NCBI GenBank assembly: GCA_963752475.1
Contig: CAVVYR010000007.1
Coordinates: forward strand, 256,001-320,000
Source: an uncultured Chloroflexia bacterium
GTDB lineage: Bacteria > Chloroflexota > Limnocylindria > Limnocylindrales > CSP1-4
Length of the DNA: 64,000 bases
Reading direction: 5' to 3'
The notes below the pieces were generated by a model. That model did not search any database. It was not told where the DNA came from and saw nothing but the letters and a program-made list of their open reading frames with translations. Positions 39,812-64,000 of this stretch are shown here, in pieces. A program made the translations under genes and the position numbers. Numbering within the stretch: the stretch's first letter is position 1; the number at the start of each line of letters is the position of its first letter.

Positions 39812-40011
39812 GCAGCCGTCACGGCAACTCGCGGCGCCAGGCGTATGGCCGCCGCATGAAGGATCTGCGCACCCGTCGCAGCTCGGACTTCGAGGTCGAT
39901 CTCGAGGGTCCCAATGGCTGGAACCGGGGTGGATCTTGGGACAGCGACCGGTCACTCCATAGCGGCGCCCTCGACGTCGACAGCAGCAGCTCGAGCGCTC
40001 GCGCCCGCTGA
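39808..40011 (+). CDS. small hypothetical protein inserted between rsmH and ftsL
   Basis: ATGA overlap with rsmH and TGATG overlap with the next gene. Confidence 0.6.
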   Translation: MSSRHGNSRRQAYGRRMKDLRTRRSSDFEVDLEGPNGWNRGGSWDSDRSLHSGALDVDSSSSSARAR

Positions 40012-40382
40012 TGGCTGTCTACCAGGGTGCACGCCTGCGCACGAACGCACTGCCGGCGGCCGAGGCATCGGCCCGTCCGCCGCGCGCGGCTGCGCCGGCG
40101 AGCGTCGGTGCCGCCGCACGGGTCCGTCCCGTGGGCCTCCTCATGGCTGCCATCGTGGCCGCCACGATCGTGGGCATGGTGTACCTGACGCAGACTCTGG
40201 GTACCAATGCCGCCTCGACCGAGATCGATCGGCTCGAGGTGCAGCGCAACAAGCTCATCACCGAGATCAAGCGACACGAGATCGTGGCGCTGGACATGAC
40301 CCAGGCTGAGGTCGTGGAGCCCAAGGCCCGCGATCAGAAGCTCAAGCGGCTGGGCGATCCCGTCGTCCTGTCCGCGCCCTGA
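40011..40382 (+). CDS. ftsL: FtsL-like cell division protein
   Basis: Single TM followed by a coiled coil; position directly before the PBP gene. Confidence 0.65.
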   Translation: MAVYQGARLRTNALPAAEASARPPRAAAPASVGAAARVRPVGLLMAAIVAATIVGMVYLTQTLGTNAASTEIDRLEVQRNKLITEIKRHEIVALDMTQAEVVEPKARDQKLKRLGDPVVLSAP

Positions 40383-40383
40383 T

Positions 40384-42405: not shown

Positions 42406-42446
42406 GGGTGACGGGATGGACGTCGGTGCGTGATGAGGCGAGGCGG

Positions 42447-47834: not shown

Positions 47835-48891
47835 TCTCCACCTGCGCTGGCTGGGCGGACGCCGTGGCCTCGAATCGGAGATCGTGCCCGCCGCGGACAT
47901 CCGCCTCGACCGGCTATGGCTGCGGTCGCTGCGCACCGTCGATGCTTCGCTGAACACGATCCTCGACCCGCTGCGCCTGGGGGCATCGGTGCCCCAGGCC
48001 ATCTGGAAGCTCATCCGCTGGCGGCCGGACGTCATCTACACCACCGGTGGCTACGTGGCCATCCCGGTGCTGGCCGCGGCCGCGCTGCTGCGGATCCCCA
48101 CGCTGCTGTGGGAGGGCAATGAGACCCCCGGTCGCAGCGTGCGCCTGTCGGCTCGGATGGCCACGCTGCGGTCCGTCTCCTACGCCGTCACCAGGGACCG
48201 GCTGCCGGCCCCGACGTTCGTCACCGGCACGCCCATCCGTGATCTCGGTGGTGGCGACAAGGCCGCGGCCCGCTCGCGGCTGGGCCTGCCGGGCGATGTG
48301 CCCGTGATGCTCATCTTCGGTGGGTCGCAGGCCGTGCGCCGTCTCAGCGACGCGGTGGCCGGATCGATCGGCGACCTCGTCGATCGCTGTTGCGTCGTGC
48401 ACATCACCGGCAGCGCGGCCATCGACGAGGCCGAGGCGCTGCGCGCGACGTTGCCGCAGGACCGACAGGAGCGTTACCGGCCCTTCGCCTTCCTGCACGA
48501 GGACATGGACGCCGCGGTGACCTCGGCCGACCTGCTCATCGGTCGGGCCGGGTCCTCGACACTGGCGGAGGCTACCGCTGCCGGACTGCCCATGGTGGTG
48601 GTGCCGTATCCGCACGCCGCGGCTCACCAGAAGGCCAACGCGGCCGAGATGGTCGACGCTGGGGCGGCCATCCTCATCGACGACGAGAACCTCGATGGCG
48701 GCACGCTGCTCGAGGCCTGCGACCTGCTGTACGACGACCGTCTGGCCGAGATGTCCGAGGCGGCCCTGCGTATCGCGCGACCCGGGGCTGCCGCTGCCGG
48801 CGTCCGGCTGCTGGAGGTCCTCGCCGCCGGCGAGCCCCTGCCCACGCAGGACGAGCTCGACGTCCTGACGCGCAGCGCGAGCGGCACATGA
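47746..48891 (+). CDS. murG: lipid II GlcNAc transferase
   Basis: GGTGGHIYP, TGGYV, GGSQ, RAGSST and HQKANA. Confidence 0.95.
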   Translation: MRILIAAGGTGGHIYPALAVVTQLQTRQPDLHLRWLGGRRGLESEIVPAADIRLDRLWLRSLRTVDASLNTILDPLRLGASVPQAIWKLIRWRPDVIYTTGGYVAIPVLAAAALLRIPTLLWEGNETPGRSVRLSARMATLRSVSYAVTRDRLPAPTFVTGTPIRDLGGGDKAAARSRLGLPGDVPVMLIFGGSQAVRRLSDAVAGSIGDLVDRCCVVHITGSAAIDEAEALRATLPQDRQERYRPFAFLHEDMDAAVTSADLLIGRAGSSTLAEATAAGLPMVVVPYPHAAAHQKANAAEMVDAGAAILIDDENLDGGTLLEACDLLYDDRLAEMSEAALRIARPGAAAAGVRLLEVLAAGEPLPTQDELDVLTRSASGT

Positions 48892-49844
48892 GGCGCCTGA
48901 CACACGACGAGCAGCTCAAGCTCGGCGGCGACATCCAAAGGCGCCTGGGTATCAAGACCTCACGCGATGAGCCGCTGGAGCGGTTCTCGACGATGCGCGT
49001 CGGTGGCCCGGCCGACCTCTTCGCCGAGGTGCGCAACCTCTTCGAGCTGCGCGGCATCGTGCGCTTCGCCCGCCAGCGCGACATCCCGCTGTTCCTCATC
49101 GGCCGCGGCTCCGACCTCGTCATCAGCGACGCCGGTATCGGCGGCCTGGTCGTGGTCGTGCGTGCCGCGGGCCTGCGCGTCACAGACGAGCGTGTCAGTG
49201 CGGAGGCCGGCGTGCAGATGGCCAAGCTGGCCACCATCGGCAAGCAGAACGGGCTCTCCGGTCTCGAGTTCGGGCTAGCCATCCCAGGCTCGGTCGGTGG
49301 CGCCGTGTGGGCCAACGCCGGCGCCCACGGCTCGGATGTCAGCGGCGTGCTCACCACCGCCCTCGTCGTCGACGCCGAGGGCGAGGAGCGAAAGCTCGGA
49401 CCCGACGAGCTGGGCATGGCCTATCGTGAAACGCGCCTGAAGCACAGTGTCCCGGGCCGGCCCGACGTCGTACTCGAGGCGTCGTTCGCACTGCAGCCCG
49501 CCGAAGCCGATACCATCGCCGAGCGCCTCGCCGCCATCCGTCGCTGGCGCCAGGAGCATCAACCGATCGGCCAGAAGTCGGCCGGTAGCGTCTTCCGCAA
49601 TCCCGAGGGGGACTCGGCCGGGCGCCTCATCGACGAGCTCGGGCTCAAGGAGCACCGCGTGGGCGGCGCCCAGGTGAGCCCCAAGCACGCCAACTTCATC
49701 GTCAACACCGGTGGCGCCACCGCTGCCGACGTGCGCGCGCTGGGCGACCACGTTCGCGAGACCGTGCGTCGTGAGCGCGGGATCGATCTGGCCTACGAGG
49801 TCGAGTTCGTCGGCGACTGGCCAGCCCAGGAGGAGGGGACATGA
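48888..49844 (+). CDS. murB: UDP-N-acetylmuramate dehydrogenase
   Basis: RVGGPAD, IPGSVGGA, NAGA, SAGSVFRNP and HANFIVN. Confidence 0.95.
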   Translation: MRRLTHDEQLKLGGDIQRRLGIKTSRDEPLERFSTMRVGGPADLFAEVRNLFELRGIVRFARQRDIPLFLIGRGSDLVISDAGIGGLVVVVRAAGLRVTDERVSAEAGVQMAKLATIGKQNGLSGLEFGLAIPGSVGGAVWANAGAHGSDVSGVLTTALVVDAEGEERKLGPDELGMAYRETRLKHSVPGRPDVVLEASFALQPAEADTIAERLAAIRRWRQEHQPIGQKSAGSVFRNPEGDSAGRLIDELGLKEHRVGGAQVSPKHANFIVNTGGATAADVRALGDHVRETVRRERGIDLAYEVEFVGDWPAQEEGT

Positions 49845-49879
49845 CCGCCATCTGCATCGAGCTGGGCACGAGCGCATGA
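49841..49879 (+). CDS. 12-codon bridging mini-ORF MTAICIELGTSA
   Basis: AGGAGGAGG RBS; ATGA overlaps with both the murB stop and the ddl start. Confidence 0.45.
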   Translation: MTAICIELGTSA

Positions 49880-51003
49880 GCTTGCCGCCGACCGCCATCG
49901 CGGTCCTCCTCGGTGGGCCCTCCGCCGAGCACGATGTCTCGCTCGTTTCGGGACGAGCCATCGCGGGCGCGCTCAGCGGTGCCGGACATGACGTCACCGG
50001 CTGGCTCCTGACGCTCGACGGCGTCTGGTGGCGGCTGCCGCCCGAGGCCCTCGATCCGACGTTGCCCCTCGATGCCTTCCGCGCACCGGCCCGGCTCGGA
50101 GCGGACGGTCCTTACGCTGCCTCGGCGGCGCTCGAGGCCATCGCCGGTGCCGACCCCACGCCGGTCGTGTTCCCCGCGCTGCACGGTCCGTTCGGTGAGG
50201 ACGGCCAGGTCCAGGCGCTGCTCGAGTCGGCTGACCTCACCTATTGCGGCGCCGGTCCCGCGGCTTCAGCGGTGGGTATGGACAAGACGCTCTTCAAGCG
50301 CGTCGTGGGCACGCTCGAGCTGCCGGTCCTGCCCTGGGCGGAGGTCCGCGCCGCGGAATATCGCGCCGACCCCGATAGCGTCATCGACGGCCTGCGGCGG
50401 TTCGCGGCTGGCTTCGCCGATCCGCGCCTCATCGTCAAGCCGGCTCGGCTCGGGTCGAGCATCGGGATCACCATCGTCCATGAGGTCGGCGGGTCCGATC
50501 TGGCCTCGGCCATCGAGACGGCCCTGCGCTACGACGACCTGCTGCTCGTCGAGCCATACCTCGACCACCCGCGCGAGCTCGAGACCGCGGTCATGGGCAA
50601 CAGCCGCATCGATGCCGTGGCCTACGGCCCCGGCGAGGTCCGGCCCGGCAACGAGTTCTACGACTACGAGGCCAAGTACCACTCGGCCGAGAGCGAGGTC
50701 ACCGCGTCCGCCGATCTCGACCCGGAGCTGGTCGAGTCCATCCGCAGCGCGTCCGTGGAGGTCTTCCTGGTCATCGGTGGGACCGGCTTCGCACGCGTGG
50801 ATATGCTCCTGAGCACCGATGGCATCCCCTACATCAGCGAGATCAACACGTTGCCCGGCTTCACGCCCATCAGCCTCTTCCCGCGCATGACCGCGCTCGG
50901 CGGCCATGACTTCGCGAGCACCTGTGAGCGCATCGTGGAGCTGGCCCTCGAGCGTGCTGCCGACCGCCCCAGCCACGAACTGACGCCAGACGAGCTGCCG
51001 TGA
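49876..51003 (+). CDS. ddl: D-alanine--D-alanine ligase
   Basis: GGPSAEHDVS, LHGPFGEDG, GSSIG, FYDYEAKY and EINTLPG. Confidence 0.96.
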   Translation: MSLPPTAIAVLLGGPSAEHDVSLVSGRAIAGALSGAGHDVTGWLLTLDGVWWRLPPEALDPTLPLDAFRAPARLGADGPYAASAALEAIAGADPTPVVFPALHGPFGEDGQVQALLESADLTYCGAGPAASAVGMDKTLFKRVVGTLELPVLPWAEVRAAEYRADPDSVIDGLRRFAAGFADPRLIVKPARLGSSIGITIVHEVGGSDLASAIETALRYDDLLLVEPYLDHPRELETAVMGNSRIDAVAYGPGEVRPGNEFYDYEAKYHSAESEVTASADLDPELVESIRSASVEVFLVIGGTGFARVDMLLSTDGIPYISEINTLPGFTPISLFPRMTALGGHDFASTCERIVELALERAADRPSHELTPDELP

Positions 51004-51962
51004 CCTACGCCCGCCCGGATCGCGCCGGCGCCATCGCGCCTCGGGATGCGGAACCTCCGCGGCGGCGACACACGGCCTTCGCGCGCCTGGTCGGCGCCAT
51101 CGGGCTGGTGCTGCTGACCTCGCTGCTCTTCTGGATGCTCACCGACGACGCCTTCAGCGTGACCGAGGACAGCGTCCGGTTCGAGGGCCTTGCGCACGCC
51201 GAGGAAGCCGCGGTGCGTGAGCTGCTTTCCGATCTCGAGCGCGGCCCCAACGCCTTCCGGGTTCGGACCTCGGAGATCGTCAGCGAGCTCTCGACGCTGA
51301 CCGAAGTGGACGCCGCCTCCGCGCGGGTCACGCTGCCGGCCGAGGTCACCGTCGAGCTCGACGAGCGCGACCCCGTGTTCATCTGGAGCAACGGCGCGCT
51401 CTCCTGGCTGGTGGACGAGGAGGGCATGCTCTTCGCACCTGCCGACGAGGCCACGGCCACGGCCGTGCGCGACGCCGTCGACGGCGGTTCGCCCGCCACG
51501 CCGGCTCCAGTCGAGGAGACGGCCGCCGACGGGGGCGCCGCTGCCGATGGGGCGGCCGACGACGAGGTCGGGCTCGACCCGACGCTGGCGGCACGTGCTG
51601 CCCTGCCGGTCGTCGAGGATGGCCGCATGCCGCCGGAGCCTCCGACGGTGGGGACGTACCTGCCACCCTCCGACCTGGCCGTGATGCGACAGCTGCTGGC
51701 GGTGACGCCGGAGCTGCTGGGCAGCCTCTCCAAGGACCTGCACCTGCGCGTCGACGAGGCCGGTGGCTACGTGCTCGAGAGCCAGGATCGCAGCTGGCGC
51801 GCGCTCTTCGGCTACTACACGCCCACGCTGCAGCCGCCGGAGGTCATCCCTCGACAGGTGCAGTGCCTGCAGTGGTTGCTCGCGAACGAGGAACGCAAGC
51901 TCGAGACCGTCCGGCTGGCGCTGTCGGAGGAGACTTGCGGGACCTTCACGAAGTACGGGTGA
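51000..51962 (+). CDS. ftsQ: FtsQ/DivIB-like protein
   Basis: TM plus POTRA-like region, LP...VELDER.P and LVDEEG; position between ddl and ftsA. Confidence 0.8.
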   Translation: MTYARPDRAGAIAPRDAEPPRRRHTAFARLVGAIGLVLLTSLLFWMLTDDAFSVTEDSVRFEGLAHAEEAAVRELLSDLERGPNAFRVRTSEIVSELSTLTEVDAASARVTLPAEVTVELDERDPVFIWSNGALSWLVDEEGMLFAPADEATATAVRDAVDGGSPATPAPVEETAADGGAAADGAADDEVGLDPTLAARAALPVVEDGRMPPEPPTVGTYLPPSDLAVMRQLLAVTPELLGSLSKDLHLRVDEAGGYVLESQDRSWRALFGYYTPTLQPPEVIPRQVQCLQWLLANEERKLETVRLALSEETCGTFTKYG

Positions 51963-52028
51963 GATAGTCGGACGAGCGCCGCGCCGGGTCCTGCGCGACC
52001 GCGCCGCATCGCCCACAATGTAGGAGCC

Positions 52029-52046
52029 GTGGTGCGTCGACGCACC
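52029..52046. promoter_or_regulatory. palindrome identical to the parA promoter site
   Basis: GTGGTGCGTCGACGCACC, just downstream of a putative -10 (CACAAT, 52014-52019) and upstream of ftsA. Confidence 0.7.
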
Positions 52047-52087
52047 GGGCCAGAGGGCAGGCCCAAGAGGTCGAGGAAGGGAAACAC

Positions 52088-53323
52088 TTGGAGTACGAAG
52101 CGATCCTGGTGGCGCTTGACGTCGGGACGAGCAAGGTCGTCGTGCTCGTCGGCGAAGTCACCAACGATGGCGCGCTGGACATCATCGGCAAGGGCGCCAT
52201 GCCCACGACCGGAGTCAAGAAGGGGCTCGTCAACAACATCGACCAGACGGTCAGCTCCATCCACGGCGCCATCGAGCAGGCGGAACGTCTCTCCGGCCTG
52301 CGTCTCGAAGCCGCCTTCGTCGGCGTCGGTGGCGACCACCTCGAATCGCTCAACTCCCGCGGCACGGTCGCGGTCAGCGGCGCCCATCGCGAGATCACGC
52401 GCGAGGACATCGAGCGCGCCACGGAGGTCGCCCGCGCGGTGACCATCCCCTCGAACCGCGAGGTGCTCCACGTCCTGCCCCGCGACTTCACCGTCGACGG
52501 CCAGGAGGGTGTCAAGGATCCGGAGGGCATGAGTGCCATCCGCCTCGAGGTCACGACCCATATCGTCCACGGTGGCGCGACGGCCCTGCAGAACCTGACC
52601 AAGTGCGTCCGCCAGGCCGGCGTCCGGCCCGATGAGCTGGTGGTCTCCGCCATCGCCTCCGGTGAGGCTGTCCTGACCGAGACCGAGCGAGAGCTGGGTG
52701 TCGCCGTGGCCGACATCGGTGCCGGCACCACCGACCTTGCGCTCTATGCCGAGGGCTCGCCCTTCCACACCTCGGTCATCCCGCTCGGCGGCGTCAACGT
52801 CACCAACGACATCGCCATCGGGCTGCGCACGAACCTCACTGCGGCCGAGGAGCTGAAGATGCAGTTCGGCTCCGAGGACGCCAAGGGTGCAGCCGATGAC
52901 GCCGAGGCGCCCGTCGAGATCATCGACGACGGCGTGGCTCGCCCCGCCCGCAAGTCCGACGTGACCGAGATCATCGACGCCCGCATGCGCGAGCTCTACG
53001 AGAAGATCGGCGACGAGGTGAACGAGAATGCCAGCGCCCACCGGCTGCCGGCCGGCTTGGTACTCACCGGCGGTGCCGCGCAGTTGGCCAACGCCGCCGA
53101 GCTGGCACGCGATGTACTCGACATCCCCGTGCGCGTGGCCTCGCCGGAGGGCGTGGGGGGATTGACCGACCACCTGCTCTCGCCGCAGTACGCCACCGCC
53201 ATCGGCCTGCTCGAGTGGGCCGCCCACGTCGTCACCACCGAGGACCTGCAGCGCTACGAGCCGCCACCGCGGACCCAGAGCTGGGACAAGCTGCGCGAGG
53301 CCGTTCGTCGCTTCTTCCCCTAG
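52088..53323 (+). CDS. ftsA: cell division protein FtsA
   Basis: LDVGTSKV, DIGAGTT, GLVLTGG and YATAIGL; C-terminal amphipathic helix. Confidence 0.97.
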   Translation: MEYEAILVALDVGTSKVVVLVGEVTNDGALDIIGKGAMPTTGVKKGLVNNIDQTVSSIHGAIEQAERLSGLRLEAAFVGVGGDHLESLNSRGTVAVSGAHREITREDIERATEVARAVTIPSNREVLHVLPRDFTVDGQEGVKDPEGMSAIRLEVTTHIVHGGATALQNLTKCVRQAGVRPDELVVSAIASGEAVLTETERELGVAVADIGAGTTDLALYAEGSPFHTSVIPLGGVNVTNDIAIGLRTNLTAAEELKMQFGSEDAKGAADDAEAPVEIIDDGVARPARKSDVTEIIDARMRELYEKIGDEVNENASAHRLPAGLVLTGGAAQLANAAELARDVLDIPVRVASPEGVGGLTDHLLSPQYATAIGLLEWAAHVVTTEDLQRYEPPPRTQSWDKLREAVRRFFP

Positions 53324-53614
53324 GTGTCCGACTCCACGGCGGTCGCCCGTGCCGCGCCGTGCTGGTCCGCTATGTGTGGGGTAGGCACGCTAAGGATGGT
53401 GAGGTGCCGCGAGGGGTGGCCGTTGACAGAATGCGACACATAGCCGCGCTCGGCGGACGCTTACGCACGATTCAGGCCATGGCCGCACTATCCCTCAGTC
53501 GAGCAGCGACGATATACTCGCCCGCAGACCAGGTGCTCTGATGAGCCACCCTGACCGTGCGGGTGGCCAACGGGCTGCAGATGCCTGGTGCGCGATCTTT
53601 GGAGGGTTCAGTAC

Positions 53615-54829
53615 ATGCCGTTGCGTTCAGACTCAGAGAACTTCGCCCTGATCAGGGTCATCGGAGTCGGCGGTGGTGGCAGCAACGCCGTCAACCGCAT
53701 GATCCGAGCCGAGCTGATGGGCGTCGAGTTCATCGCTGTCAATACCGACGCCCAGGCCCTGCTGCAGTCGGACGCCCCCAACAAGATCCGTATCGGCGAC
53801 AAGATCACCCGTGGCCTCGGCGCCGGCGGTGACCCCTCCATCGGCCAGCGCGCCGCTGAGGAAGACTCCGAGAAGATCGCCGACGCCCTTCGTGACTCCG
53901 ACATGGTCTTCATCACCGCCGGCATGGGTGGTGGGACCGGTTCGGGTGCCGCACCCGTCATCGCTGAGATCGCGCGCGATATGGGTTCCCTCACCATCGG
54001 CGTCGTGACCAAGCCCTTCGCGTGGGAGGGCGCGCGCCGCCGTCTCAACGCCGAGAAGTCGGCCGAGCTGCTGCGGGACAAGGTCGACACCCTCATCACC
54101 ATCCCCAACGATCGCCTCAAGGAAGTCGTCACCGAGGAGACGTCGATCGTCGACGCCTTCCGCGTGGTGGACGACGTCCTGCGCCAGGGTGTGCAAGGCA
54201 TCAGCGACCTCATCACCGTGCCCGGCCTCATCAACCTCGACTTCGCCGATGTGCGCGCGGTCATGCGCTCGGCCGGCTCGGCCCTCATGGGCATCGGCCG
54301 CGCCAGCGGTACGGACCGTGCCGCCGAGGCCGCCCGCGAGGCCATCAGCAGCCCGCTGCTCGAGGTCAGCATCAGCGGCGCCCAGGGCATCCTCTTCAAC
54401 GTGACCGGCGGTCCCAGCCTCGGCCTCTTCGAGGTCGACGAAGCAGCCGAGATCATCAAGGAGATGGCGGACCCGGAGGCCAACATCATCTTCGGCACCG
54501 TCATCGACGAGCGCATGGGCGACGATCTCCAGATCACCGTCATCGCCACCGGCTTCGACCACAACCGCGCCAATGCCTATCCGGGCCTCGAGGCGCAGGT
54601 GGACGAGGGTGCCGGCGTGCAGGCGGGTCTCGAGAACCGCGATTTCATGCAGGAGCTCGCGCGCCAGCGCACTGCCGCCGGCGACCAGGCCAGGACCGAG
54701 GGCGAGACCGAGGCCAAGCAGGCCGTGGCCGTCCCGGTGTCGAGCGGCGAGCCCGTCGCCGCCGGCGAGAAGACCGCTGCCAAGGAGGAGGATCTCGACA
54801 TCCCGGCGTTCCTGCGCCGCAGCCGCTGA
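53615..54829 (+). CDS. ftsZ: cell division protein FtsZ
   Basis: GGGTGSG, NLDFAD and C-terminal LDIPAFLR; GGAGG RBS. Confidence 0.98.
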
Positions 54830-54883
54830 TCCACGCCCACGAACACTGAAGCCGGCCCGCTCGACGAGGGGGCCATCTCCGAG

Positions 54884-55576
54884 TTGGCCGCTGCCCGCGC
54901 CGAGGTACTCGAGCGCATGGCGGCGGCCTGCGTGCGTTCCGGGCGCTCGCCCGACGCCGCCGTCCTGGTAGCGATCTCCAAGACCTGGCCGGTCGAGCGG
55001 CTGCGGTTGATCCAGGCGGCCGGGCACGACGTGCTGGGCGAGAACCGGGTGCAGGAGGCGGCCGGCAAGATCCCGGAGCTGGGCCCGGCGACTTGGCACC
55101 TGGTGGGACACCTGCAGAAGAACAAGGCGGCCAAGGCGGTCGAACTCTTCGACGTCATCGAATCGGTCGACTCGGTCGCGCTGGCCGCTCGGCTGGACCG
55201 GCTGGTGGGGGAGCGTGGTTCGCGCTCGGGCGGTCCGCTGCCCATCCTGCTGCAGGTCAACGTCGATGCTGACCCGGCCAAGGCCGGCTTCGAGCCCGAG
55301 CCGCTGGAGCGGGAGCTCGAAGACGTCCTGGTGCTATCGAACGTGCGCGTCGATGGGCTCATGACCGTCGGCTTCCACACCGGGGGCGGGGATGTGGCGC
55401 GGCCGACCTTCGTCCGACTCCGCGAGCTGTCCGAGCGTCTGCGCGCAGCCGATGAGCGGCTCGGCCCCGAGCTCTCGATGGGCATGACCGACGACTACGA
55501 GGTCGCGATCGAGGAAGGCAGTACGCTGGTACGCGTGGGTCGGGCGCTCTTCGGGGAGCGACCCAAGCCCGTCTAG
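54884..55576 (+). CDS. yggS: YggS/PROSC PLP homeostasis protein
   Basis: AISK, GENRVQE, WHLVGHLQKNK, LSMGM and VRVGRALFG. Confidence 0.95.
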   Translation: MAAARAEVLERMAAACVRSGRSPDAAVLVAISKTWPVERLRLIQAAGHDVLGENRVQEAAGKIPELGPATWHLVGHLQKNKAAKAVELFDVIESVDSVALAARLDRLVGERGSRSGGPLPILLQVNVDADPAKAGFEPEPLERELEDVLVLSNVRVDGLMTVGFHTGGGDVARPTFVRLRELSERLRAADERLGPELSMGMTDDYEVAIEEGSTLVRVGRALFGERPKPV

Positions 55577-55597
55577 TCCGAGGGGAACCCGAATCGA

Positions 55598-55849
55598 GTG
55601 GAAGACTTCCTACGCATCCTGCTGCAGTCGCTCGTCACCACCGCCTGGGTGGTCATGCTGGGACGTGTCCTGATGAGCTGGATCGACCCGCAATTCGAGA
55701 AGCCGCTGGGCCAGTTCCTGTACAGCCTCACCGAGCCGTTCCTGGCGCCGATCCGCAACATCCTGCCGCAAACAGGCATGTTCGACTTCAGCCCGCTGGT
55801 GCTGCTGATCGGTCTGGGCATGCTGATGCGGGTGACCTGGTACCTGTGA
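55598..55849 (+). CDS. yggT: YggT family membrane protein
   Basis: LMSW, TEPFLAPIR and DFSP. Confidence 0.93.
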   Translation: MEDFLRILLQSLVTTAWVVMLGRVLMSWIDPQFEKPLGQFLYSLTEPFLAPIRNILPQTGMFDFSPLVLLIGLGMLMRVTWYL

Positions 55850-56130
55850 GCGCCGTGATCGCGGTGCGCGTGGCGCCGCGGTCGAGCCGCGAAGCCATCG
55901 AGGGAGTCGATGACGCTGGCGAGTTGCGCGTGCGCGTGACCGCGCCACCGGCCGACGGTGCCGCCAACGCCGCGGTCATCAAGCTGATGGCCAAGGAGCT
56001 GCGCCTGCCCAGGAGCGCGGTGAGCGTGGCCTCCGGCAGCACGAGCCGACACAAGCGCCTGCGGATCGAAGGCGTGGACGCGGCCGAGCTGCGGGCGCGT
56101 TGGCCGGGCGTGAGCTTCAAGGAGCGCTAG
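55846..56130 (+). CDS. yggU: DUF167/YggU family protein
   Basis: VRVAPRSS, APPADGAAN and GSTSRHK. Confidence 0.92.
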   Translation: MSAVIAVRVAPRSSREAIEGVDDAGELRVRVTAPPADGAANAAVIKLMAKELRLPRSAVSVASGSTSRHKRLRIEGVDAAELRARWPGVSFKER

Positions 56131-56199
56131 AAGCACATCAGTCGCCGATCGGACGCCGTCAGTCGACCGTTCTGTGGATCCTCGTTCCAGGCTGTGCTT

Positions 56200-56372
56200 C
56201 GCGACCAGCGGCTATCCCCTGATGGCTGAACCCGACGTGCTCGATGGCCAAGTTGCCGCATCTCAGCCTCCGGCAGGCTCGGATCGACAGTCCGAGTCCC
56301 CATCGGGCTGATGGCGCGCACCCAGGGCCCCAGGCTGGTCGAGTTCAGCCCGCCAGGGATGATCGAGTCACG
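56200..56372 (-). ncRNA. candidate rod-shaped structured RNA (6S-like?)
   Basis: End-to-end pairing atccctggcgggctgaactcgac/gtcgggttcagccatcaggggat with nested stems; G-U wobbles favour the minus strand. Confidence 0.4.
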
Positions 56373-56446
56373 GAGCAGCCCAACCTGACAGCGCCAGATC
56401 GCTTGCAGGCGCATCGTCGCCGTCGGGCTATACTCTTCACTCCCAC

Positions 56447-56523
<77 letters not shown>

Positions 56524-56536
56524 CCGTGACCCAAGA

Positions 56537-56570
56537 ACGAAGGCGGAGTCGATGACGGCTCCGCTTTCGT
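56537..56570 (+). terminator. putative terminator after tRNA-Val
   Basis: acgaaggcggagtcg-atga-cggctccgctttcgt hairpin. Confidence 0.65.
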
Positions 56571-56722
56571 GTTGCGGGCGTATGGGCGGCCACCGACGCC
56601 ACCATCGACAGCACCTGACAGCGGAATCGGAAAAGACTCCTCGACTCAACCCCTCGTGCACATAGAGGTCGGTGCCGCGTGCTTCACTAGCACGGACGCA
56701 GGCCGGACGGAACGGGAGGGGT

Positions 56723-57283
56723 ATGGATCCGGAGGTCGTGGTGCGAGCGCAACACGGGGACGAGGCCGCATTCGAGTCGATCACCGTCGCCGCCTACCCG
56801 CGGCTCTATCGCATCGCCCACGGCATCCTGCGCGAGCATGGTGCCGCCGATGATGCCGCCCAGACCGCGCTCGTCGATATCTGGCGCCGGCTCCCGCGCC
56901 TGCGTGACCCCGAGAGGTTCGACGGCTGGTCCTACCGGCTGCTCGTGCGCATCTGCTACGCCGAGGTCAAGCGCCGGCCGAAATGGCTGCCCGACGAAGC
57001 CATCACGCGCTCGAACGAGCCTCGCGCCGCCGATCCTTTCGGCGCCGTGCTCGACCAGGACCAACTGGAGCGAGCGTTCGGCGCCCTGAGCGTGGACCAT
57101 CGCGCGGTCATCGTCCTGCGCTACCTGCTGGACCTGCCCCTCGAGCAGGTGGCCCAGGCGCTCGACATCCCGGTCGGCACGGTCGGCTCGCGGCTCCATC
57201 GTGCGCTCGAGGTCCTGCGCGCGAGCGTCGAGGCCGGCGACCGCACTGAGCCCTTGCACGCCGAGTCGGAGGGACGCTCATGA
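56723..57283 (+). CDS. ECF RNA polymerase sigma factor
   Basis: GDEAAF, ADDAAQ, FDGW and region 4 VAQALDIPVGTVGSRLHRA; GGAGGGG RBS. Confidence 0.93.
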   Translation: MDPEVVVRAQHGDEAAFESITVAAYPRLYRIAHGILREHGAADDAAQTALVDIWRRLPRLRDPERFDGWSYRLLVRICYAEVKRRPKWLPDEAITRSNEPRAADPFGAVLDQDQLERAFGALSVDHRAVIVLRYLLDLPLEQVAQALDIPVGTVGSRLHRALEVLRASVEAGDRTEPLHAESEGRS

Positions 57284-59928
57284 ACGACGAGCAGTTCACC
57301 CCGGTCATCCAGTCCTGGCTGCGCTCGAATGACACCGTGCCGCCCGAGCCGCTCGAGCGCACTGACCGCGTGATGGCCCGCGTCCGTTCCACGCGTCAAC
57401 TCGGGCGCCACTGGCCGCCGGAGGCCCTCGTCCCGGAGGTCGAGCCGACCACGGACGGCCCAGGACTCGGCGTCCACCCCGCTCGAGACCGACAAGTCCA
57501 CTGGCTGCCGAGTCGGTTCTCGATCGTCATCGCGATGCTTGCTGCGCTGGTCGTGCTACTGACCGCCAACCTGCTCCTGCTCGACCCGGCGCGGACCGAG
57601 CAGCGCGGTGTCGCCCCACTCCCGGGAGCCGAGGAGTCCGCCGAGCCGAGCAAGGCCATCAGCTGGATCACCGAGCCGGTCAGCCTCGAGGCGGACGCGC
57701 TACGGCTCCACGTCGGCGACATCGTCGTGACAGCTGTGGCCGAAGCGTCCGTCGAGGGCTCCGGAGACCAGGCTCGCCAGCGAGAGCTGGCAGTCGACTG
57801 GCAAGAGAACGACACGTGGCAGCACCTGCAGCTGTACCTCGCCGCGGACGACACGCACTGGTGGATCAGCGAGCTCTTCACCAGCCATGGCACCGAAGCC
57901 ACCAGCACGGTCACCTTCGATACCACGCGCCTGCCTCGGACCACGATCGGAAGCGCGTTGACCACGGATCTCCGACTCACCGGGACGCCGGACGGCGACA
58001 GCGCCCAGACCGGACCCGTCGAGCTGGAGATCGATGGGCTGGTGCTTCGAGCGTTCGAGCCCGGCACCGGTGTCGACCGCGTGGCCACGGAAGTCGGACG
58101 TGTGACCGCGACCGGCGATACCGTCGGCCCAGGGGTACTGCGTGTCGTCGACGACGGCACGAGTCATGGCCTCGAGAGCGTGTTGCACGTCGCCGTGACC
58201 CCCGACGGGCGCGCTTGGGCGGCCACGACCACCCACATCTACGAGCTGGGCGTCGAGGGCGGCTTGCGCGCGATCGACGGTGGGCCGCGTACGATCGAGG
58301 GGCTGGCTGCAGGGGCGGACGATCGCCTGCTTCTGCCCGCGGACGGTGGCGGGTGGCTGCCGACGGATGGCCACTCGTGGCTCGAGTCGGCGTGGTCGGG
58401 ATCGGCGTCCTTCGACGAGGCCGTGATCAGCGCGGACGGTTCGCTCTGGGGCGTCACGAGCGAAGCCGGAGAGATGTTCGGACGGATCGATGCCCTGGGC
58501 ACGATGACGACCAGCGGCATGGCGCTCGCTGATGGGTCGCCCGTCGACCTCGAGGACGGTGCAGCCGCGGGGTCGATCGTGGCCCTCGCGGACGGTTCGG
58601 TCTGGGTCGCGACCGGCCCTGGAGGCGCCATCAGGCGATTCGATGGCGAGGACCGGGGCGCGATCGATGAGATGCACGAACCGTTCGGAACGTATGAGGC
58701 CGGGCAGCATGTCCTCGATCTTGCCGCCAGCACGAACGGGGTGGTCTGGGCCCTGCTCGAGGACCACGCCGGGCAGTATCTCGGGCGTTTCGACGGCACG
58801 ACGTGGTCCCTGCACGTCTGGGACGACGTGGTTGCCGGGTTGCCCGACGATGCCCAGCGGTCATGGGCCTTCCCGGATGGCATCGCCGCTGTGCTCTCCG
58901 ATGGCGCCGTGCTGGTCGCTCCCGTCGACGTCTACGCTGACACGGGCTCCTCGGGGTTGCTCCGCTACGACGGCCGTGCCTCGAGGGTGGCGGCCGATGT
59001 CGCGTTCGACGACTTCGCGGCAACGCCCGATGGGCGGGTGTGGGCCGCGGGTTGGTCAGGCCTGCATCTGCTCGACCCGACCGCGTGGCCCGAGGCGGCG
59101 GGTCCGGTCACGGCCGATGACCAGGTCCCTCCCGGACGAGTGGTGCTCGACCTGCGGCCCAGCCGCCGGCTCGAGCAGGTCGTGGCGTATCTCCAGCGCC
59201 AGAGCGAACAGACCGACCTCGGGCTCGACCCCGAGGCCTTCCTCCGACTCGCCCGCGACCCGGGCGACCACTGGCGTGAGCAGTACCCGTTCCTGAAGGA
59301 AGCCCCGGAGGGCAGCAGCCTGGAGGGTTTCCTCGCCTCCGGCACGTACGAGGGACCGTCGGACATCGCCGCCGAGGACCTCGTCGCGCGGATGCTCGAG
59401 GAGTGGGACGAACGGATGTCGCCGTACGTCGCGGAGGCGGAGCGGAGAGGTATCGACTTCTACGATGCGCTCATCGTCGCCAGTCTCGTCGAGCGGCAGG
59501 CCCGCGACGACGCCGACCGTGCGAGGATCGCCGGCGTCTACTGGAACCGGCTCGACCCCGACGTCTACGGCGATCAGACCGGCGGCCTCCTGAACGCCGA
59601 CCCGGCCGTGGTCTACGCGACCGACTCGATGGCGCTCGAGGATCTGCCGGTCGAGGACTGGGACGGCTATCGCTTCTGGGACCTGCTCGGGATCGATGAC
59701 TACAGCGTCGTCGAGGTCGACCCCGAGTACGCGTCCTTCCAGACGTATCGCACGAAGGGGCTGCCCGAGTGGCCCATCGTGACCCCGGGCGCAGCCTCGA
59801 TGGCGGCAGCGCTGGATCCGGATACCGGCGACGGCAGCCTCTTCTTCTTCGCTTGTCCGGGCTCGACCACGCACGTGTTCGCCCAGACCTTCGACGAGCA
59901 CCTCGAGAACATCGAGCGATGCGACTGA
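57280..59928 (+). CDS. putative anti-sigma membrane protein with beta-propeller-like region and C-terminal MltG (YceG) domain
   Basis: ATGA-coupled to the sigma gene; short cytoplasmic N-terminus, one TM and DGxxW repeats. MltG motifs LEGFL..TY, ASLVERQA, IAGVYWNRL, NADPAVVY, TY..KGLP..PI..PG and HVFAQTFDEH. Confidence 0.85.
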   Translation: MNDEQFTPVIQSWLRSNDTVPPEPLERTDRVMARVRSTRQLGRHWPPEALVPEVEPTTDGPGLGVHPARDRQVHWLPSRFSIVIAMLAALVVLLTANLLLLDPARTEQRGVAPLPGAEESAEPSKAISWITEPVSLEADALRLHVGDIVVTAVAEASVEGSGDQARQRELAVDWQENDTWQHLQLYLAADDTHWWISELFTSHGTEATSTVTFDTTRLPRTTIGSALTTDLRLTGTPDGDSAQTGPVELEIDGLVLRAFEPGTGVDRVATEVGRVTATGDTVGPGVLRVVDDGTSHGLESVLHVAVTPDGRAWAATTTHIYELGVEGGLRAIDGGPRTIEGLAAGADDRLLLPADGGGWLPTDGHSWLESAWSGSASFDEAVISADGSLWGVTSEAGEMFGRIDALGTMTTSGMALADGSPVDLEDGAAAGSIVALADGSVWVATGPGGAIRRFDGEDRGAIDEMHEPFGTYEAGQHVLDLAASTNGVVWALLEDHAGQYLGRFDGTTWSLHVWDDVVAGLPDDAQRSWAFPDGIAAVLSDGAVLVAPVDVYADTGSSGLLRYDGRASRVAADVAFDDFAATPDGRVWAAGWSGLHLLDPTAWPEAAGPVTADDQVPPGRVVLDLRPSRRLEQVVAYLQRQSEQTDLGLDPEAFLRLARDPGDHWREQYPFLKEAPEGSSLEGFLASGTYEGPSDIAAEDLVARMLEEWDERMSPYVAEAERRGIDFYDALIVASLVERQARDDADRARIAGVYWNRLDPDVYGDQTGGLLNADPAVVYATDSMALEDLPVEDWDGYRFWDLLGIDDYSVVEVDPEYASFQTYRTKGLPEWPIVTPGAASMAAALDPDTGDGSLFFFACPGSTTHVFAQTFDEHLENIERCD

Positions 59929-61208
59929 TCGCGGCGCTGGCGATCTGCCTGGTGCTGTCGTCGGCCGCCGCCACGCAGGCGGCAGGCTCGGAGGACGCGC
60001 GCTACACCTGGACGGAGTTGAGTCGAGCGACGCACGAGGCACACCGGACCAGGTCGGGACTGCCCGGTGCCGGGCAGTTGGGATCAGCCTGGGTCGATGT
60101 CGAGAAGAACCGGGTCGGCCTGCGTTTCGAGCGCGGCGCCCTCGAGCGGGCTGACTTGGCGTCGGCTGAACGCAAGTGGGAGCGGGCGCTGGGTGTGCCG
60201 GTCTACATCTGGCGCGAGGAGATCGTGCCGTCGATACCGCGCGCCGGAGCGTGGGTGAAGCTGCCCGACGCTCCGTGGGGTGCAGCCAACGCCGTCGCGG
60301 TCGCCATCGATGGGGACATGCTCGTGCTCGACCGTGAGACTGGGCGGGTCCTGCGGTTCGATCCGGAAAGGAACACCTGGATGCGCGGCGCCCGTGCGCC
60401 GAAGCCATTCCGGTCGTACGGCGCGTCGATCGGGACCGGCAGCGAGCTGATCCTGCCGCACACGAAGGACGCCAGTCGGATCGCGACGTACGACCCCACT
60501 GCTGACAGGTGGCGTACGCGCAAGCTCCCGCCATCACCGCTTTCGGGTCCTGACGCCGTGGTCTGGGCCGACGGGCGGTTGGTCGTGGCGGACATCGAGA
60601 CCGAGAGCGAGGTCGACATCGAACGGTCCCTCGCCCTACTGGACCTCGATACCGGCGAGTGGACCGAGCTGCCGGCACCCGAGGCCCCGAGCCAGCTCGT
60701 CGGCCTGCATTGGACCGGATCAGTCATCCTGGCCGTGACGACGGACGAGTACGAAGACCTCGTCCAGGTCACTGTCCTTGACCTCGACGACCGCGAATGG
60801 AGCGAACCCCTCACCGGGCCTCTGAGCTGGTGGTATCGGCACGGGGTCTGGATCGGTGACCGGCTCCTCTTCACGGGCGGCGGCGATCATGGGCCGAGTG
60901 ACGCCTCGTTCGACCCGGTCACGATGACTTGGACGGAGGAGGACTACGTCTGCCCCGTCGGTACACGCGAGGCGATCTGGACTGGCGAGCTCCTCGTCAG
61001 CGAGTCGAGCCGCTACTCGCTCGACCCTGACACTGGCACCTGCTATCGCTTCACCGGGCGCGATCGCACGATGAACTCCAACGCCGTCGTCTGGACCGGC
61101 GATCGCGTCATCTACTGGTCCGGCGGTGGCGCGGAGGAGGGGCAACCGGACCCATACCGCCACAACGGCCACGCCTTCGTGTTCTTCGACGAAGAGGTCC
61201 AGGGATGA
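59919..61208 (+). CDS. secreted Kelch-like beta-propeller protein
   Basis: Signal peptide MRLIAALAICLVLSSAAATQA; repeated WTG...YDP...W blades. Confidence 0.8.
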   Translation: MRLIAALAICLVLSSAAATQAAGSEDARYTWTELSRATHEAHRTRSGLPGAGQLGSAWVDVEKNRVGLRFERGALERADLASAERKWERALGVPVYIWREEIVPSIPRAGAWVKLPDAPWGAANAVAVAIDGDMLVLDRETGRVLRFDPERNTWMRGARAPKPFRSYGASIGTGSELILPHTKDASRIATYDPTADRWRTRKLPPSPLSGPDAVVWADGRLVVADIETESEVDIERSLALLDLDTGEWTELPAPEAPSQLVGLHWTGSVILAVTTDEYEDLVQVTVLDLDDREWSEPLTGPLSWWYRHGVWIGDRLLFTGGGDHGPSDASFDPVTMTWTEEDYVCPVGTREAIWTGELLVSESSRYSLDPDTGTCYRFTGRDRTMNSNAVVWTGDRVIYWSGGGAEEGQPDPYRHNGHAFVFFDEEVQG

Positions 61209-61306
61209 CGCCAGCCAGCTGCCAACGTGGCCCTGACGCGGACCGGCCGTCCTGTGAGTGAGAGCGGCATGATCGGTCCGGCGAACCGCGCCACCGAGCG
61301 TGATCC

Positions 61307-63506
61307 ATGGCTCGCGTGATCGGCGCCCGAGCTCGGCCGTGGATCGCATCGATCGCGATGGTCCTGTGCCTGGCGACAGTGAACGCTCTGATGTCGCCGC
61401 CGATCGTGGCCAAGGCTCCGGTGGACACAGATGAGCTAACACTCGACTACAGGGGCTGGGATGGCCGCATCACACGGCCGCTCGGCTACTGGTGGGAGCA
61501 GGGATCCGGAGGTGAGTGGTGGGTCGAACGCGCCAACCTCCGCCCGGACGGTCGCCTCACGCTGCACCTGGCGATCGATCCGATCGAAACGACCGTGCCT
61601 CTCGACCCTGGACCCGCGGTCCTCTTCGCATCTGCCCACCTGTCCGGCGACGGCGGCAGCGTCGGCCTCGGGGCGCGAGTCGGCAAGCCAGTGCACGTGA
61701 CCACACGTCCTTGTCGAGGCTCACAGCGATGCGAGATGCGTGCGAACGTCGTGCTTCCGACGCACCGGCTGGAGTCGGCCGCTGCCGGCGTTCGACATCC
61801 GGCCACTTGGCATGCACTCGGCGTGAACCTGACACTCGTTCGCACCTTCGGCCAGGGGACGTGGGTCCAGGTGCTCCCGCTCGAGGGACGCGGGCTCACG
61901 GGACGCGTCGGTACGGTTTCGGACCCCGGCACGTTCAAGGCGCACACCCGCTACTTCGGTGCGTTCCCGCTCGAGCAGGGCGAGCGCTGGCTGGCGAACC
62001 TCCCTCGCGAGGTCCGGTACGAGCCGGTGCTTCGCATCACCGAGCGTATCCGGCAGAAGGGGGACGAGAGCCAGATTCCCGAAAGCGTCCCGTTCCAGCT
62101 CGACGTGGACGCGGGCGACTGCCTGGGCTGGAGCCTGATGAACGCCACTGGTGACATCGCCTTCGACGAGACCGAGCGGCTGTTCGGCCGGGAGGTGCGC
62201 ACGGTCGATGTGCCCGTCGGGTCGGAGTGGTACGTGCGCTCGCCGAGCCTCGAGAACCTCGACATGCCCTCCGAGACGGTCCATAGCTTCGGACCCTTCT
62301 CGGCGGATAGCGACGGTCTGCGGATCGAGGGTTCGTGGCGCTGCGGCGAAGTCAGCGGTGATGTGACGACGTCCGCGCTGGCGGCGCAAGTCGCGAGCGC
62401 AGCCGCATCACCGTACGTGTGCGAGGAACCTCGTGATCGGATCGTCGAGGAGCCGGGCGTCCTGGCGGGGGAGTGGTCGAGCATCGCGACCGCGCCGATC
62501 CCTGGGCGGCACTCCCACACGGTCACCTGGACCGGCGAAGAGGTCATCGTCTGGGGCGGCATCGAGACCGCCGAAGACGGCTCCACGAGCATGCCGGCCG
62601 ACGGCGCTGCCTATGACCCCGCAACCGATACGTGGCGACCGATCAGCGAGGCGCCGATCAGGGGCCGGATCGGGCACACGGCGGTGTGGACCGGTGATCA
62701 GCTCATCATCTTCGGTGGCCGACGAGGAGACCGGCTTCGGGGCGATGGTGCCGCGTACTTCCCGACAACGGACACATGGCGTCAGATCCCCACGCTCGAG
62801 AGCGGCCTCCGACGCCGCTCGCATCATGCCTTCTGGACGGGCAAGCAGATGCTCATCTGGAGCGGCATCGGGCCGAGCGGCAGTCGCTATTGGCGAGATG
62901 ACGTCATGCTCGCGTACGACCCTTCGACCGACGACTGGTACGGAGATCGGTCGCCACTGTTCCGGCGCTGGGGACCTGATGGCCTCGCCGGTGACGGGGA
63001 GTTCGTCTTCGCCGTCAGCTACGGCGGTGGCGAGCGGCCCGAGATGGCGGTCTACGAGGTCTCCACCGAGCAGTGGCATGCCATCGCCGAGCCTGGAATC
63101 TCTGGACGGGCCCCGGCGTCACCCATCTGGACCGGCGCTGAGCTGCTGCTCTTGCGCCCGAGTATCCGGCTCGGCGGGGATCGATCTGCCGGCGAGTGCC
63201 GCCTACGACCCATCCGGCTCGTGCTGGCGCAGCGTCTCAACAGCGATACCGACGCATTCCGTCGCCTCGGCACCGTCGTGGACCGGGGAGCTGGCGGTGT
63301 TCGCCGGTCGCGAAGGCTTGGCCTACGACCCTGACGCCGACCGATGGCTGGCGATGCCGGCAGACGATCGCGCGGCTCGCACCGAGACGCCGTTCGTGTG
63401 GGCAGGAGATCGCATCTTCGCCTGGGGTGGGGTGGACCCGGCCACCGGGGCCGTGCTCGAGGACGGCGTAACGTACCGAGTACCGCTGGAGGGCGAGCCC
63501 AGATGA
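61307..63506 (+). pseudogene. secreted Kelch-repeat protein with a frameshift near 63160 (real or sequencing error)
   Basis: VWTG..IVWGG...AAYDP..W repeats continue in another frame after about 63160 to TGA 63506. Confidence 0.7.
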
Positions 63507-63565
63507 GAAGTATCGTGTTCGCTCGGCTTCGCTTGGCCATGCTCGCCTGCCTGTTCAGGTCATGA
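63503..63565 (+). CDS. 20-codon bridging mini-ORF or signal-peptide remnant
   Basis: MRSIVFARLRLAMLACLFRS with ATGA overlaps at both ends. Confidence 0.35.
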   Translation: MRSIVFARLRLAMLACLFRS

Positions 63566-64000
63566 GAGCGCCACTCGCGATGGCTGCCGTCGTGGTGGTC
63601 CTACTTACCGGGATGATCGCCGAGGGTCAGCCTGCCGCCGCGGCAGAGTCCGAAGCCACCGATCTCAGACCCAACGCGGAGCGGCCGCTCACCCACGAGG
63701 AACTGCTGATGATCCGGGGTGAACGCGAGCGCTCCGCGACGTGGGGCTCCGCCATGCTCGTGGCCGAGACCGTCCTCGAACGCGACCGGCCGCTGCGCGG
63801 CGGCGACCAGTGGTCGGGTGAGGGTCCGGCGTTCGGCGCCTTGCCGCGCGACGAAGTCCACCCGGGAGATCCGCTCGTACTGGCTTCCAGGACCGTGACC
63901 GCACGGCTCCCGGCCGACGACGGTCCCGTCCGCGGCCTCCTCGCTATCTCCGACAGCCGGTCCGACGCGTTGCGCTTGCAGGGCACCGTCGAGATGCCTG
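63562..64000 (+). CDS. secreted hypothetical protein, 5' part (runs off the window)
   Basis: MRAPLAMAAVVVVLLTGMIAEGQPAAAAE...; open to the window end. Confidence 0.7.
   Translation, partial: MRAPLAMAAVVVVLLTGMIAEGQPAAAAESEATDLRPNAERPLTHEELLMIRGERERSATWGSAMLVAETVLERDRPLRGGDQWSGEGPAFGALPRDEVHPGDPLVLASRTVTARLPADDGPVRGLLAISDSRSDALRLQGTVEMP

Follow-up and report, generated by a model that had tools for sequence, protein, structure and literature searches.

The 64,000-nucleotide stretch of DNA analyzed here (the window) encodes an extracytoplasmic function (ECF) sigma factor and, coupled to it, an anti-sigma-like receptor whose carboxy-terminal domain is copied from the catalytic part of the endolytic transglycosylase MltG (YceG), with glutamine at the position of the catalytic glutamate. 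The third gene of the unit encodes a Kelch-repeat protein. The window lies on contig C7 of a metagenome-assembled genome (MAG) of 4.25 Mb in 38 contigs (completeness 88.8%, contamination 5.8%), from a host described as a soil or sediment bacterium of the Chloroflexota. Where genomes have to be told apart, this one is called G000, and G022 and G014 are two other genomes of its genus that bear the fusion. The features of the locus are collected in Table 1.

Table 1. Features of the sigma factor operon and its surroundings, in window coordinates, with the evidence or relation on which each entry rests.
Feature	Position	Strand	Evidence or relation
ftsZ	53588-54829		1.9 kb upstream of sigma gene
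tRNA-Val	56447-56523		Upstream of sigma gene
Conserved leader upstream of sigma gene	56619..56722	+	87-91% identity over ~100 nt in two orthologous loci
ECF (group 4) sigma factor, 186 aa	56723..57283	+	Profile matches
Anti-sigma-like receptor, 882 aa, with C-terminal MltG domain (predicted inactive)	57280..59928	+	Open reading frame, profile matches
N-terminal cytoplasmic module, residues 1-46, presumed sigma-binding part	57280..57417	+	Conservation, sigma coupling
Single transmembrane helix, residues ~80-102	57517..57585	+	Hydropathy
Domain A, extracytoplasmic, residues ~110-265	57607..58074	+	Without Pfam family
Seven-repeat beta-propeller, Reg_prop type, residues ~290-600	58147..59079	+	Reg_prop profile, repeats
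MltG/YceG catalytic subdomain without LysM-like part, residues 623-879	59146..59916	+	PF02618
CAG codon, Gln740 at catalytic Glu position (E. coli Glu218)	59497..59499	+	Alignment
Ala776 codon, in place of DPT-motif Thr (E. coli Thr247)	59605..59607	+	Alignment
Kelch-repeat protein with signal peptide, 429 aa, third operon gene	59919..61208	+	Kelch families

The start codon of the receptor gene and the stop codon of the sigma gene share an ATGA overlap (GCTCATGAACG), and the Kelch gene begins 10 nt before the receptor gene ends. The same unit of sigma factor, receptor and Kelch genes is kept in G022 and G014, where the Kelch copies are 73-75% identical to that of the window. The sigma factor matches Sigma70_r2, Sigma70_r4_2 and Sigma70_ECF, scores 72 bits against TIGR02937 (cut-off 42.9), and its profile matches the solved chains of SigW, SigE, RpoE, SigL and CnrH, the first three being the best. 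Alignment with orthologues and paralogues backs the ATG at 56723 as its start, and the orthologues adjacent to the fusion in G022 and G014 are 92-93% identical to it. The original prediction, made from the letters of the DNA, had described the receptor gene as ATGA-coupled to an ECF sigma gene, and both reading frames, the overlap and the ECF profiles were reproduced. As a separate observation, the ECF complement of G000 is very large for a genome of 4.2 Mb, with 51 TIGR02937 matches (37 over the cut-off among the matches listed); more than 20 of these factors are 45-57% identical to the window sigma factor, and they are often clustered on contigs C4, C6, C19 and C36.

The receptor has a short amino-terminal region ahead of its predicted membrane helix, which is its sole strongly hydrophobic stretch (maximum of 2.79 in a 19-residue Kyte-Doolittle window). 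Seven DG..W-type repeats follow between residues 300 and 600; this region on its own scores 26.5 bits against the Reg_prop profile (cut-off 20.4), and within the whole protein the score is 19.8 bits, below the cut-off. The hydropathy, the repeats and the Reg_prop match agree with the short N-terminus, the single transmembrane segment and the propeller-like region that had been proposed. Domain A, between the helix and the propeller, has no Pfam family in the window receptor. It has 242 matches at E <= 0.001 in a representative protein library, and most of the 150 that were listed cover this stretch; among 38 match proteins that were scanned, all lack a Pfam family on this stretch and 31 lack one anywhere, while dockerin accompanies domain A in three. 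It also occurs in one multi-domain protein of 2023 aa. Domain A may be an undescribed extracellular binding domain. No significant match to a solved structure came from sequence or profile searches with domain A, with the propeller or with the N-terminal module. One relative, P0005, is 48% identical to the receptor over domain A and the propeller and stops eight residues past the final blade, as would a receptor of the unfused type.

An MltG domain with glutamine at the catalytic position

The claim that the receptor ends in an MltG catalytic subdomain was checked against the YceG profile PF02618, which matches with an E-value of 1.5e-39 and 136.6 bits (cut-off 32.4) and covers profile positions 71-274 of 275; the TIGR00247 model scores 68.5 bits on the fusion, below its cut-off of 103.4. 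The motif of the domain reads ASLVERQA. In an alignment with E. coli K-12 MltG (from NC_000913.3), which has Glu216 and Glu218 in IIEKE, and with the canonical MltG of G000, Gln740 falls on Glu218 of the former and on Glu296 of the latter, so that the codon singled out by the original prediction indeed occupies the E218 position. EcMltG E218Q and BsMltG E242A serve as catalytically inactive controls in PMC8135044, in keeping with the role that had been assigned to the E218Q mutant, and the catalytic residue of M. abscessus MltG is Glu307 (PMC11533991). The active-site residues of the E. coli enzyme are Glu218 and Asp245, of which Asp245 is 95% conserved (bioRxiv 10.1101/2021.03.06.434200).

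The rest of the cleft has changed little. Asp774, the counterpart of Asp245, is kept in the sequence NADPA, in which the threonine of the DPT motif is replaced by Ala776, and the positions aligned to the pocket residues Tyr392, Phe393, Val394 and Phe404 of M. abscessus MltG (residues from PMC11533991) are all phenylalanine. Of 64 columns without variation among the 23 canonical domains examined in the genus, the four known copies of the fusion all retain 56; E740Q, K749R, T776A and Y857F are fixed differences. The fusion resembles the MltG/YceG proteins of E. coli, B. subtilis and M. abscessus and Lmo1499 in its catalytic subdomain, conserved aspartate and aromatic pocket, and differs from them in having glutamine for glutamate, alanine for the DPT threonine and no LysM-like subdomain. 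Some 520 residues separate its domain from the membrane helix, which the domain adjoins in those enzymes, and the fusion is coupled to a sigma factor.

Glutamine occupies the catalytic position in all four fusion copies, each of which reads VERQA. At the same position, glutamate is found in every other YceG domain examined (46/46), 23 of them the unbroken canonical domains from the genus and 23 from other long YceG proteins, the latter drawn from a search restricted to the MltG part that yielded 26 long proteins, 23 of them not copies of the fusion. A short-read contig from the public run X1 covers 59346-59525 without a difference and confirms CAG; X1 is possibly the source sample, hence not independent, and its contigs cover 13 of 30 bins of the stretch. 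It was the only DNA run in which parts of the stretch were found, and a look for RNA data sets containing the stretch gave none. Because the same glutamine is present in all four fusion assemblies and the read contig agrees, Gln740 is not a base-calling error. Three of the refuting outcomes that had been set for the prediction, namely GAG in the reads, glutamate in homologous fusions and a one-off misassembly, were checked and turned out in its favor, with CAG in the run, glutamine in four of four copies and four assemblies that share the architecture. A different build was seen in one of these 23 long proteins, P0154 (880 aa), which combines a signal peptide or transmembrane segment and an unannotated N-terminal region of ~540 aa with a full YceG domain that has an intact VEREA and includes the LysM-like part. 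Over the MltG part, P0154 and the fusion share 57% identity.

The canonical MltG of G000 is encoded on contig C14 (437 aa, profile positions 1-274, motif ASFVEREA) and is identical to the fused domain at 160 of 263 residues (61%). Searching 5.8 billion proteins uncovered three further fusion proteins: P0001, of 882 aa and 77% identical to the window receptor, and P0002 and P0003, the products of the G022 and G014 copies. A YceG match is present in 47 of 49 genomes of the genus, and a second locus occurs only in G000, G022 and G014, where it is in each case the fusion. A scan of metagenome contigs with the alignment of the four copies found no fusion, the three loci recovered all being distant canonical MltGs of 27-29% identity, and a scan of genome contigs for further fusions found only the G022 contig. 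In a sample of the class (301 genomes, of which 12 are flagged as unpublished and enter no other count), 289 genomes have a YceG match and 277 of these have a single one.

The 31 YceG loci of the genus include 24 unbroken domains, 23 canonical and one the window fusion; seven broken or partial loci were left out. A maximum-likelihood tree was built from 28 rows: these 24 domains, the fusion protein P0001, P0004 as outgroup, and both broken copies of the fusion, read through their breaks with X. All four fusion domains group in a single clade (support 100/100), which is nested in a clade of 20 rows made up of the genus's canonical MltGs (support 100/99). Because of this nesting, the tree identifies the donor as the genus's own MltG, duplicated within the genus. 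The stem of the fusion clade measures 0.39, against ~0.04-0.09 for nearby inner branches of the canonical enzymes, and its tips ~0.01-0.06; the long stem and short tips indicate that the copied domain changed fast once and then slowed.

For the MltG-like part, pairwise ratios of nonsynonymous to synonymous divergence (dN/dS, Nei-Gojobori method) among the three fusion copies with DNA are 0.15, 0.21 and 0.19, with dS between 0.37 and 0.41. These are the lowest values of all parts of the receptor, with 0.32-0.61 for domain A, 0.24-0.28 for the propeller and 0.27-0.30 for the whole gene. Canonical MltG gives 0.12-0.21 at dS 0.27-0.30 and 0.18-0.55 at dS 0.44-0.60, a rough comparison in that dS is seemingly compressed in this GC-rich genus. 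On these values the fused domain is no less constrained than the housekeeping enzyme and is under purifying selection.

An amino-terminal module coupled to sigma factor genes

The first 46 residues of the receptor form a conserved module with the pattern MxDE..P.L..WL...D..P......RVM..V...RQxGRWWP. It ends in RQxGRxWP, and W13, Q40, R43, W45 and P46 are invariant in nine sequences. Adjacency of the ECF sigma gene, which the prediction had asked to be checked in homologs, holds in all three orthologous loci with DNA context, that of the window included. Paralogues of the module are encoded at four other places in G000 (contigs C6, C14, C8 and C29), and all four start 4 nt before the stop codon of a paralogous sigma gene whose product is 51-57% identical to the window sigma factor. 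In all four the module is followed by a transmembrane helix; three then have a propeller-like region, the paralogue on C8 gave no propeller or Pfam match, and none has an MltG part. In a sample of 14 other genomes of the genus, each of 20 places with the module has a paralogous ECF sigma factor (46-67% identical) directly upstream. In 19 of these both matches lie on the same strand, with 11-286 nt between the matched parts; at the twentieth only the sigma match passed a stricter search.

A profile of the module matches 67 longer database proteins (including P0177-P0239), for which every source name seen is "hypothetical protein". P0001 and P0002 are the only ones among them that carry PF02618, and a few carry Kelch or Reg_prop. 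In P0235 and P0236 a complete ECF sigma factor is fused in frame to the module. By these matches the module is an unannotated family. To our knowledge, RQxGRxWP is not a described anti-sigma signature.

We read the receptor as anti-sigma-like because its module is coupled to sigma genes, and residues 1-46 probably hold the sigma factor. Class I anti-sigma domains (ASDI) have ~101 residues in four helices, often with an HxxxCxxC motif, and class II domains of the CnrY type are short, with two helices in fewer than 50 residues (PMC7406223). With a conserved part of ~46 residues, no cysteine in residues 1-60 of the translation, no HxxxCxxC zinc motif and no Pfam match, the module does not resemble class I; it falls in the length range of class II, without a sequence match to it. 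As in the class I (RseA, RsiW, RskA) and class II (CnrY) systems, the receptor gene follows the ECF sigma gene directly, in the same orientation and with translational coupling, an arrangement expected of an anti-sigma gene, and its product is a single-pass protein with a short cytoplasmic N-terminus. It differs from RseA, RsiW, RskA and CnrY in that its module has no sequence similarity to them, and by sequence the receptor belongs to no known anti-sigma family.

Leader and genomic neighborhood

The leader upstream of the sigma gene may contain the promoter or a 5' untranslated region (UTR). It holds TAGAGGTCGG 61 nt before the sigma ATG, and an element of the form TAGAGG(A/T)C(C/G)G stands 61-69 nt before the start of the window gene and of its paralogues on C6, C8 and C14; the fourth paralogue in the genome (C29, locus L047) has the related element TAGAGAGG. 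The leaders compared were 56660-56722 of the window, L044:556-624, L045:3686-3753 (minus strand), L046:509-574 and L047:447-515. In the paralogous sigma-operon leaders a 7-bp GC-rich hairpin was also seen after the element, with one pair that covaries among four paralogues. The element could represent the -10 region of a promoter, and the hairpin could belong to the 5' UTR. The element alone is unspecific, with 46 matches in the genome against ~32 expected by a rough estimate, and no other copy of the 125-nt leader was found in G000. A search of 56100-63600 found no sigma-70-like promoter, and the one terminator-like site there compares with 1.5 expected; an Rfam scan of 56100-57300 returned only the tRNA. 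In G014 the leader and the first 37 sigma codons are duplicated ~6 kb upstream (L048, which is G014:C3:313000-321800, at 1959-4172), where they precede a paralogue resembling the first Kelch gene (38-41% identical), which suggests that the cassette has been rearranged locally.

Upstream of the operon lies a complete dcw cluster (38855-56127) with mraW, a penicillin-binding protein (PBP) transpeptidase gene, mraY, murD, ftsW, murG, murB, ddl, ftsA and ftsZ. A gene with an Ala_racemase_N (YggS-like) product, yggT (YGGT), a DUF167 gene and the tRNA-Val gene follow ftsZ, and then the sigma operon. FtsA is thus encoded in this Chloroflexota genome. The distance of about 2 kb to ftsZ had been reported correctly, and with it a functional link had been hinted at. 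No genes of the dcw/ftsZ region were found within 5.4 kb (G022) and 8 kb (G014) upstream of the fusion operon, and both genomes have ftsZ and the fusion on separate contigs. We therefore regard the nearness of ftsZ in the window as incidental and rejected a functional linkage of the operon to the dcw cluster. A foreign origin of the locus was considered as well and is unsupported: the GC content is 0.67-0.70 throughout and the MltG-like domain nests in the genus's own MltG clade.

Downstream of the first Kelch gene, after a gap of 98 nt, a second Kelch-propeller protein of 675 aa is encoded at 61307-63334, with Kelch families matching residues ~390-545. A protein of 704 aa, only 28% identical to it and with a weak BNR match, takes the counterpart position in G022. 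A reading frame with a hydrophobic N-terminus runs from 63562 off the end of the window.

A proposed glycan-strand receptor and its alternatives

The architecture of the receptor, the origin of its terminal domain by duplication, the fixed exchange of glutamate for glutamine, the constraint on the rest of the cleft and the strict coupling to sigma genes are established by the analysis above, and from them we infer sigma binding, loss of activity, a ligand and a release mechanism. Taken as a whole, they incline us, with some caution, to regard the locus as a young, lineage-restricted pair of ECF sigma factor and anti-sigma-like protein with a non-catalytic sensor derived from MltG and glycan strands as its ligand. 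The N-terminal module would sequester the sigma factor in the cytoplasm, and outside the membrane would stand domain A, the seven-bladed propeller and, at the far end, the MltG copy. This copy would have been appended to a pre-existing receptor composed of domain A and propeller; after the fusion the catalytic glutamate would have become glutamine and the DPT threonine would have been lost, with the rest of the cleft, including the aspartate and the aromatic pocket, being kept. A domain with Gln740 would bind without cutting, its likeliest ligand being uncross-linked or nascent glycan strands of peptidoglycan, and the propeller or domain A may substitute for the missing LysM-like subdomain. 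Occupancy by the ligand would alter the receptor's stability or conformation and thereby free the sigma factor, perhaps through regulated proteolysis; M50-family site-2 proteases are encoded in G000, as in all 14 control genomes, so that their presence has little discriminating value. Once freed, the sigma factor would activate the operon that encodes it, and with it the presumably co-transcribed gene of the secreted Kelch protein.

The principle of an anti-sigma-type receptor with an enzyme-derived sensor is known from the SigI6/RsgI6 system of C. thermocellum, whose GH10 sensor shares 57% identity with a real xylanase and, although its activity is very low, has kept its binding of polysaccharide (PMC4711584). 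In both systems the extracytoplasmic end copies a glycan-cleaving enzyme of the organism itself (57% identity there, 61% here), and both belong to families of several paralogues with exchangeable sensor modules. For the fusion, a loss of activity with retained binding is a prediction. The systems differ in that SigI is replaced here by an ECF factor with a normal sigma-4 region, which SigI factors lack (PMC4711584), and in that the N-terminal module is not RsgI_N, Pfam finding nothing there. The presumed ligand here is the cell's own wall polymer and not an external plant polysaccharide, and the catalytic residue is cleanly replaced. A further apparent difference is the autoproteolysis by which RsgI signals (PMC10328401).

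Several observations weigh against this interpretation. The receptor lacks the LysM-like subdomain that corresponds to YceG profile positions 1-70, and in the three-way alignment its match to E. coli MltG and the canonical MltG of G000 begins beyond that subdomain, which has been linked to effective peptidoglycan binding and, in E. coli, to function (PMC11533991, bioRxiv 10.1101/2021.03.06.434200); the threonine of the conserved DPT motif is lost as well. The loss of activity is extrapolated from the E. coli E218Q mutant. On the cytoplasmic side, residues 1-100 match no Pfam anti-sigma family at E-values up to 5, and the module matches neither an NCBIfam model nor a solved anti-sigma chain. 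A search of G000 for a target promoter or regulon found none. The fusion is present in only three of the 49 genomes of the genus and on one further database contig, and is therefore dispensable and young. Finally, two of the four fusion copies carry single-base frame breaks, consisting of one insertion in G022 and, in G014, of a deletion-insertion pair that shifts the frame over ~33 codons, together with a second insertion. Real decay is the alternative here; because the same assemblies also split canonical mltG (both) and ftsZ (G014), the breaks point to assembly errors. Several more MAGs from the genus likewise have a broken canonical mltG, and apparent pseudogenes in the G014 and G022 assemblies should be read with caution. 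The idea of an MltG-derived sensor thus gained from the sigma adjacency, the purifying selection and the origin from the housekeeping MltG, and lost some ground with the missing LysM-like part and DPT threonine.

The strongest of the alternatives, though in our view an unlikely one, is that the inactive domain docks on peptidoglycan synthases, such as class A PBPs or RodA/FtsW complexes, and reports on them or damps them. In vitro, EcMltG E218Q reduced the transpeptidase products of PBP1A and PBP1B in spite of its inactivity, and BsMltG interacts with PBP1 and PBP2B (PMC8135044). Docking would also fit the lack of the glycan-binding LysM-like subdomain and the place of the operon at the end of the dcw cluster in this genome, but this linkage is not conserved, and the retention of the substrate-contact residues in the cleft favors a glycan ligand.

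We find it distinctly improbable that the receptor is an effector, a sigma-regulated and membrane-anchored dominant-negative MltG that lengthens glycan chains under stress by competition with the active enzyme for nascent strands, its module having a role other than sigma sequestration. Such an effector would be co-induced through co-transcription of its gene with the sigma gene, and the module has no detectable anti-sigma similarity. The module is coupled to sigma genes at 27 loci, however, and is even fused to a sigma factor, and the paralogues that share it carry propellers only, with no enzyme-like part, a pattern that fits exchangeable sensor ends.

Far less credible still is a domain that remains an enzyme through another acid/base, for example Glu738, which lies two residues upstream of Gln740, or through changed chemistry. 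E218Q abolishes the activity of the E. coli enzyme despite Glu216 (PMC8135044), the M. abscessus motif LLQREA, with glutamine upstream and the catalytic glutamate in place, implies that the upstream glutamate is not required, and here the DPT threonine is gone as well. These points outweigh the retention of Glu738 and Asp774, the variable chemistry of YceG proteins (SpMpgA is a muramidase; bioRxiv 10.1101/2021.03.06.434200) and the very low activity that RsgI6-GH10 keeps (PMC4711584). That the fusion is an assembly artefact or a functionless, decaying pseudogene, as the frame breaks in two of four copies and the metagenomic origin of all the genomes might suggest, is already largely refuted by four assemblies with the same architecture and junction, by dN/dS values of 0.15-0.21 in the MltG-like part and 0.27-0.30 overall, by the restriction of the breaks to single-base indels in assemblies that also break mltG (and ftsZ in G014), and by the intact window copy and P0001.

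Reuse of wall enzymes in regulation has other examples: the LytM factors EnvC and NlpD are catalytically degenerate wall-enzyme homologues that act as regulators, and RsiV is a lysozyme receptor. The proposed MltG-derived sensor shares with them the use of a wall-enzyme fold, or of binding to a wall enzyme, for regulation or signaling; their folds, partners and outputs are different, and none is known to be a YceG protein or an inactive transglycosylase on an anti-sigma factor. In the literature on MltG/YceG in combination with anti-sigma or ECF sigma factors, and on lytic transglycosylases as pseudoenzymes, as judged by titles and the openings of abstracts, we found no such fusion. The sequence statements of the original prediction all hold, and its interpretation is plausible, with partial support. 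The principle of an enzyme-derived sensor on an anti-sigma-type receptor is known; the new part would be the inactivated MltG domain on an undescribed N-terminal module.

The importance of the locus is limited by its narrow distribution, by hosts that are all uncultured and by the precedent of RsgI6. Within these limits, it offers a dated example of an enzyme turned into a receptor module, by duplication within one genus, with an unfused relative extant and the donor gene retained alongside the fusion. The substitution by which MltG is inactivated in the laboratory has arisen here in evolution, and the domain has been strongly constrained and wired to a sigma factor. The analysis also draws attention to three unannotated elements, namely the sigma-coupled module, the widespread domain A and the large ECF complement of the genome. 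How bacteria sense the synthesis of their own wall is poorly understood and direct sensors are few, and the receptor is a concrete candidate for a sensor of glycan strands or of synthases. We suggest, tentatively and with less confidence than we place in the reading as a whole, that it is a direct transcriptional sensor of the cell's own glycan strands, built from an E218Q-type cleft on a new class of short anti-sigma module. If this is true, it would be the first anti-sigma factor derived from a lytic transglycosylase, and its terminal domain a natural probe for the binding of glycan strands.

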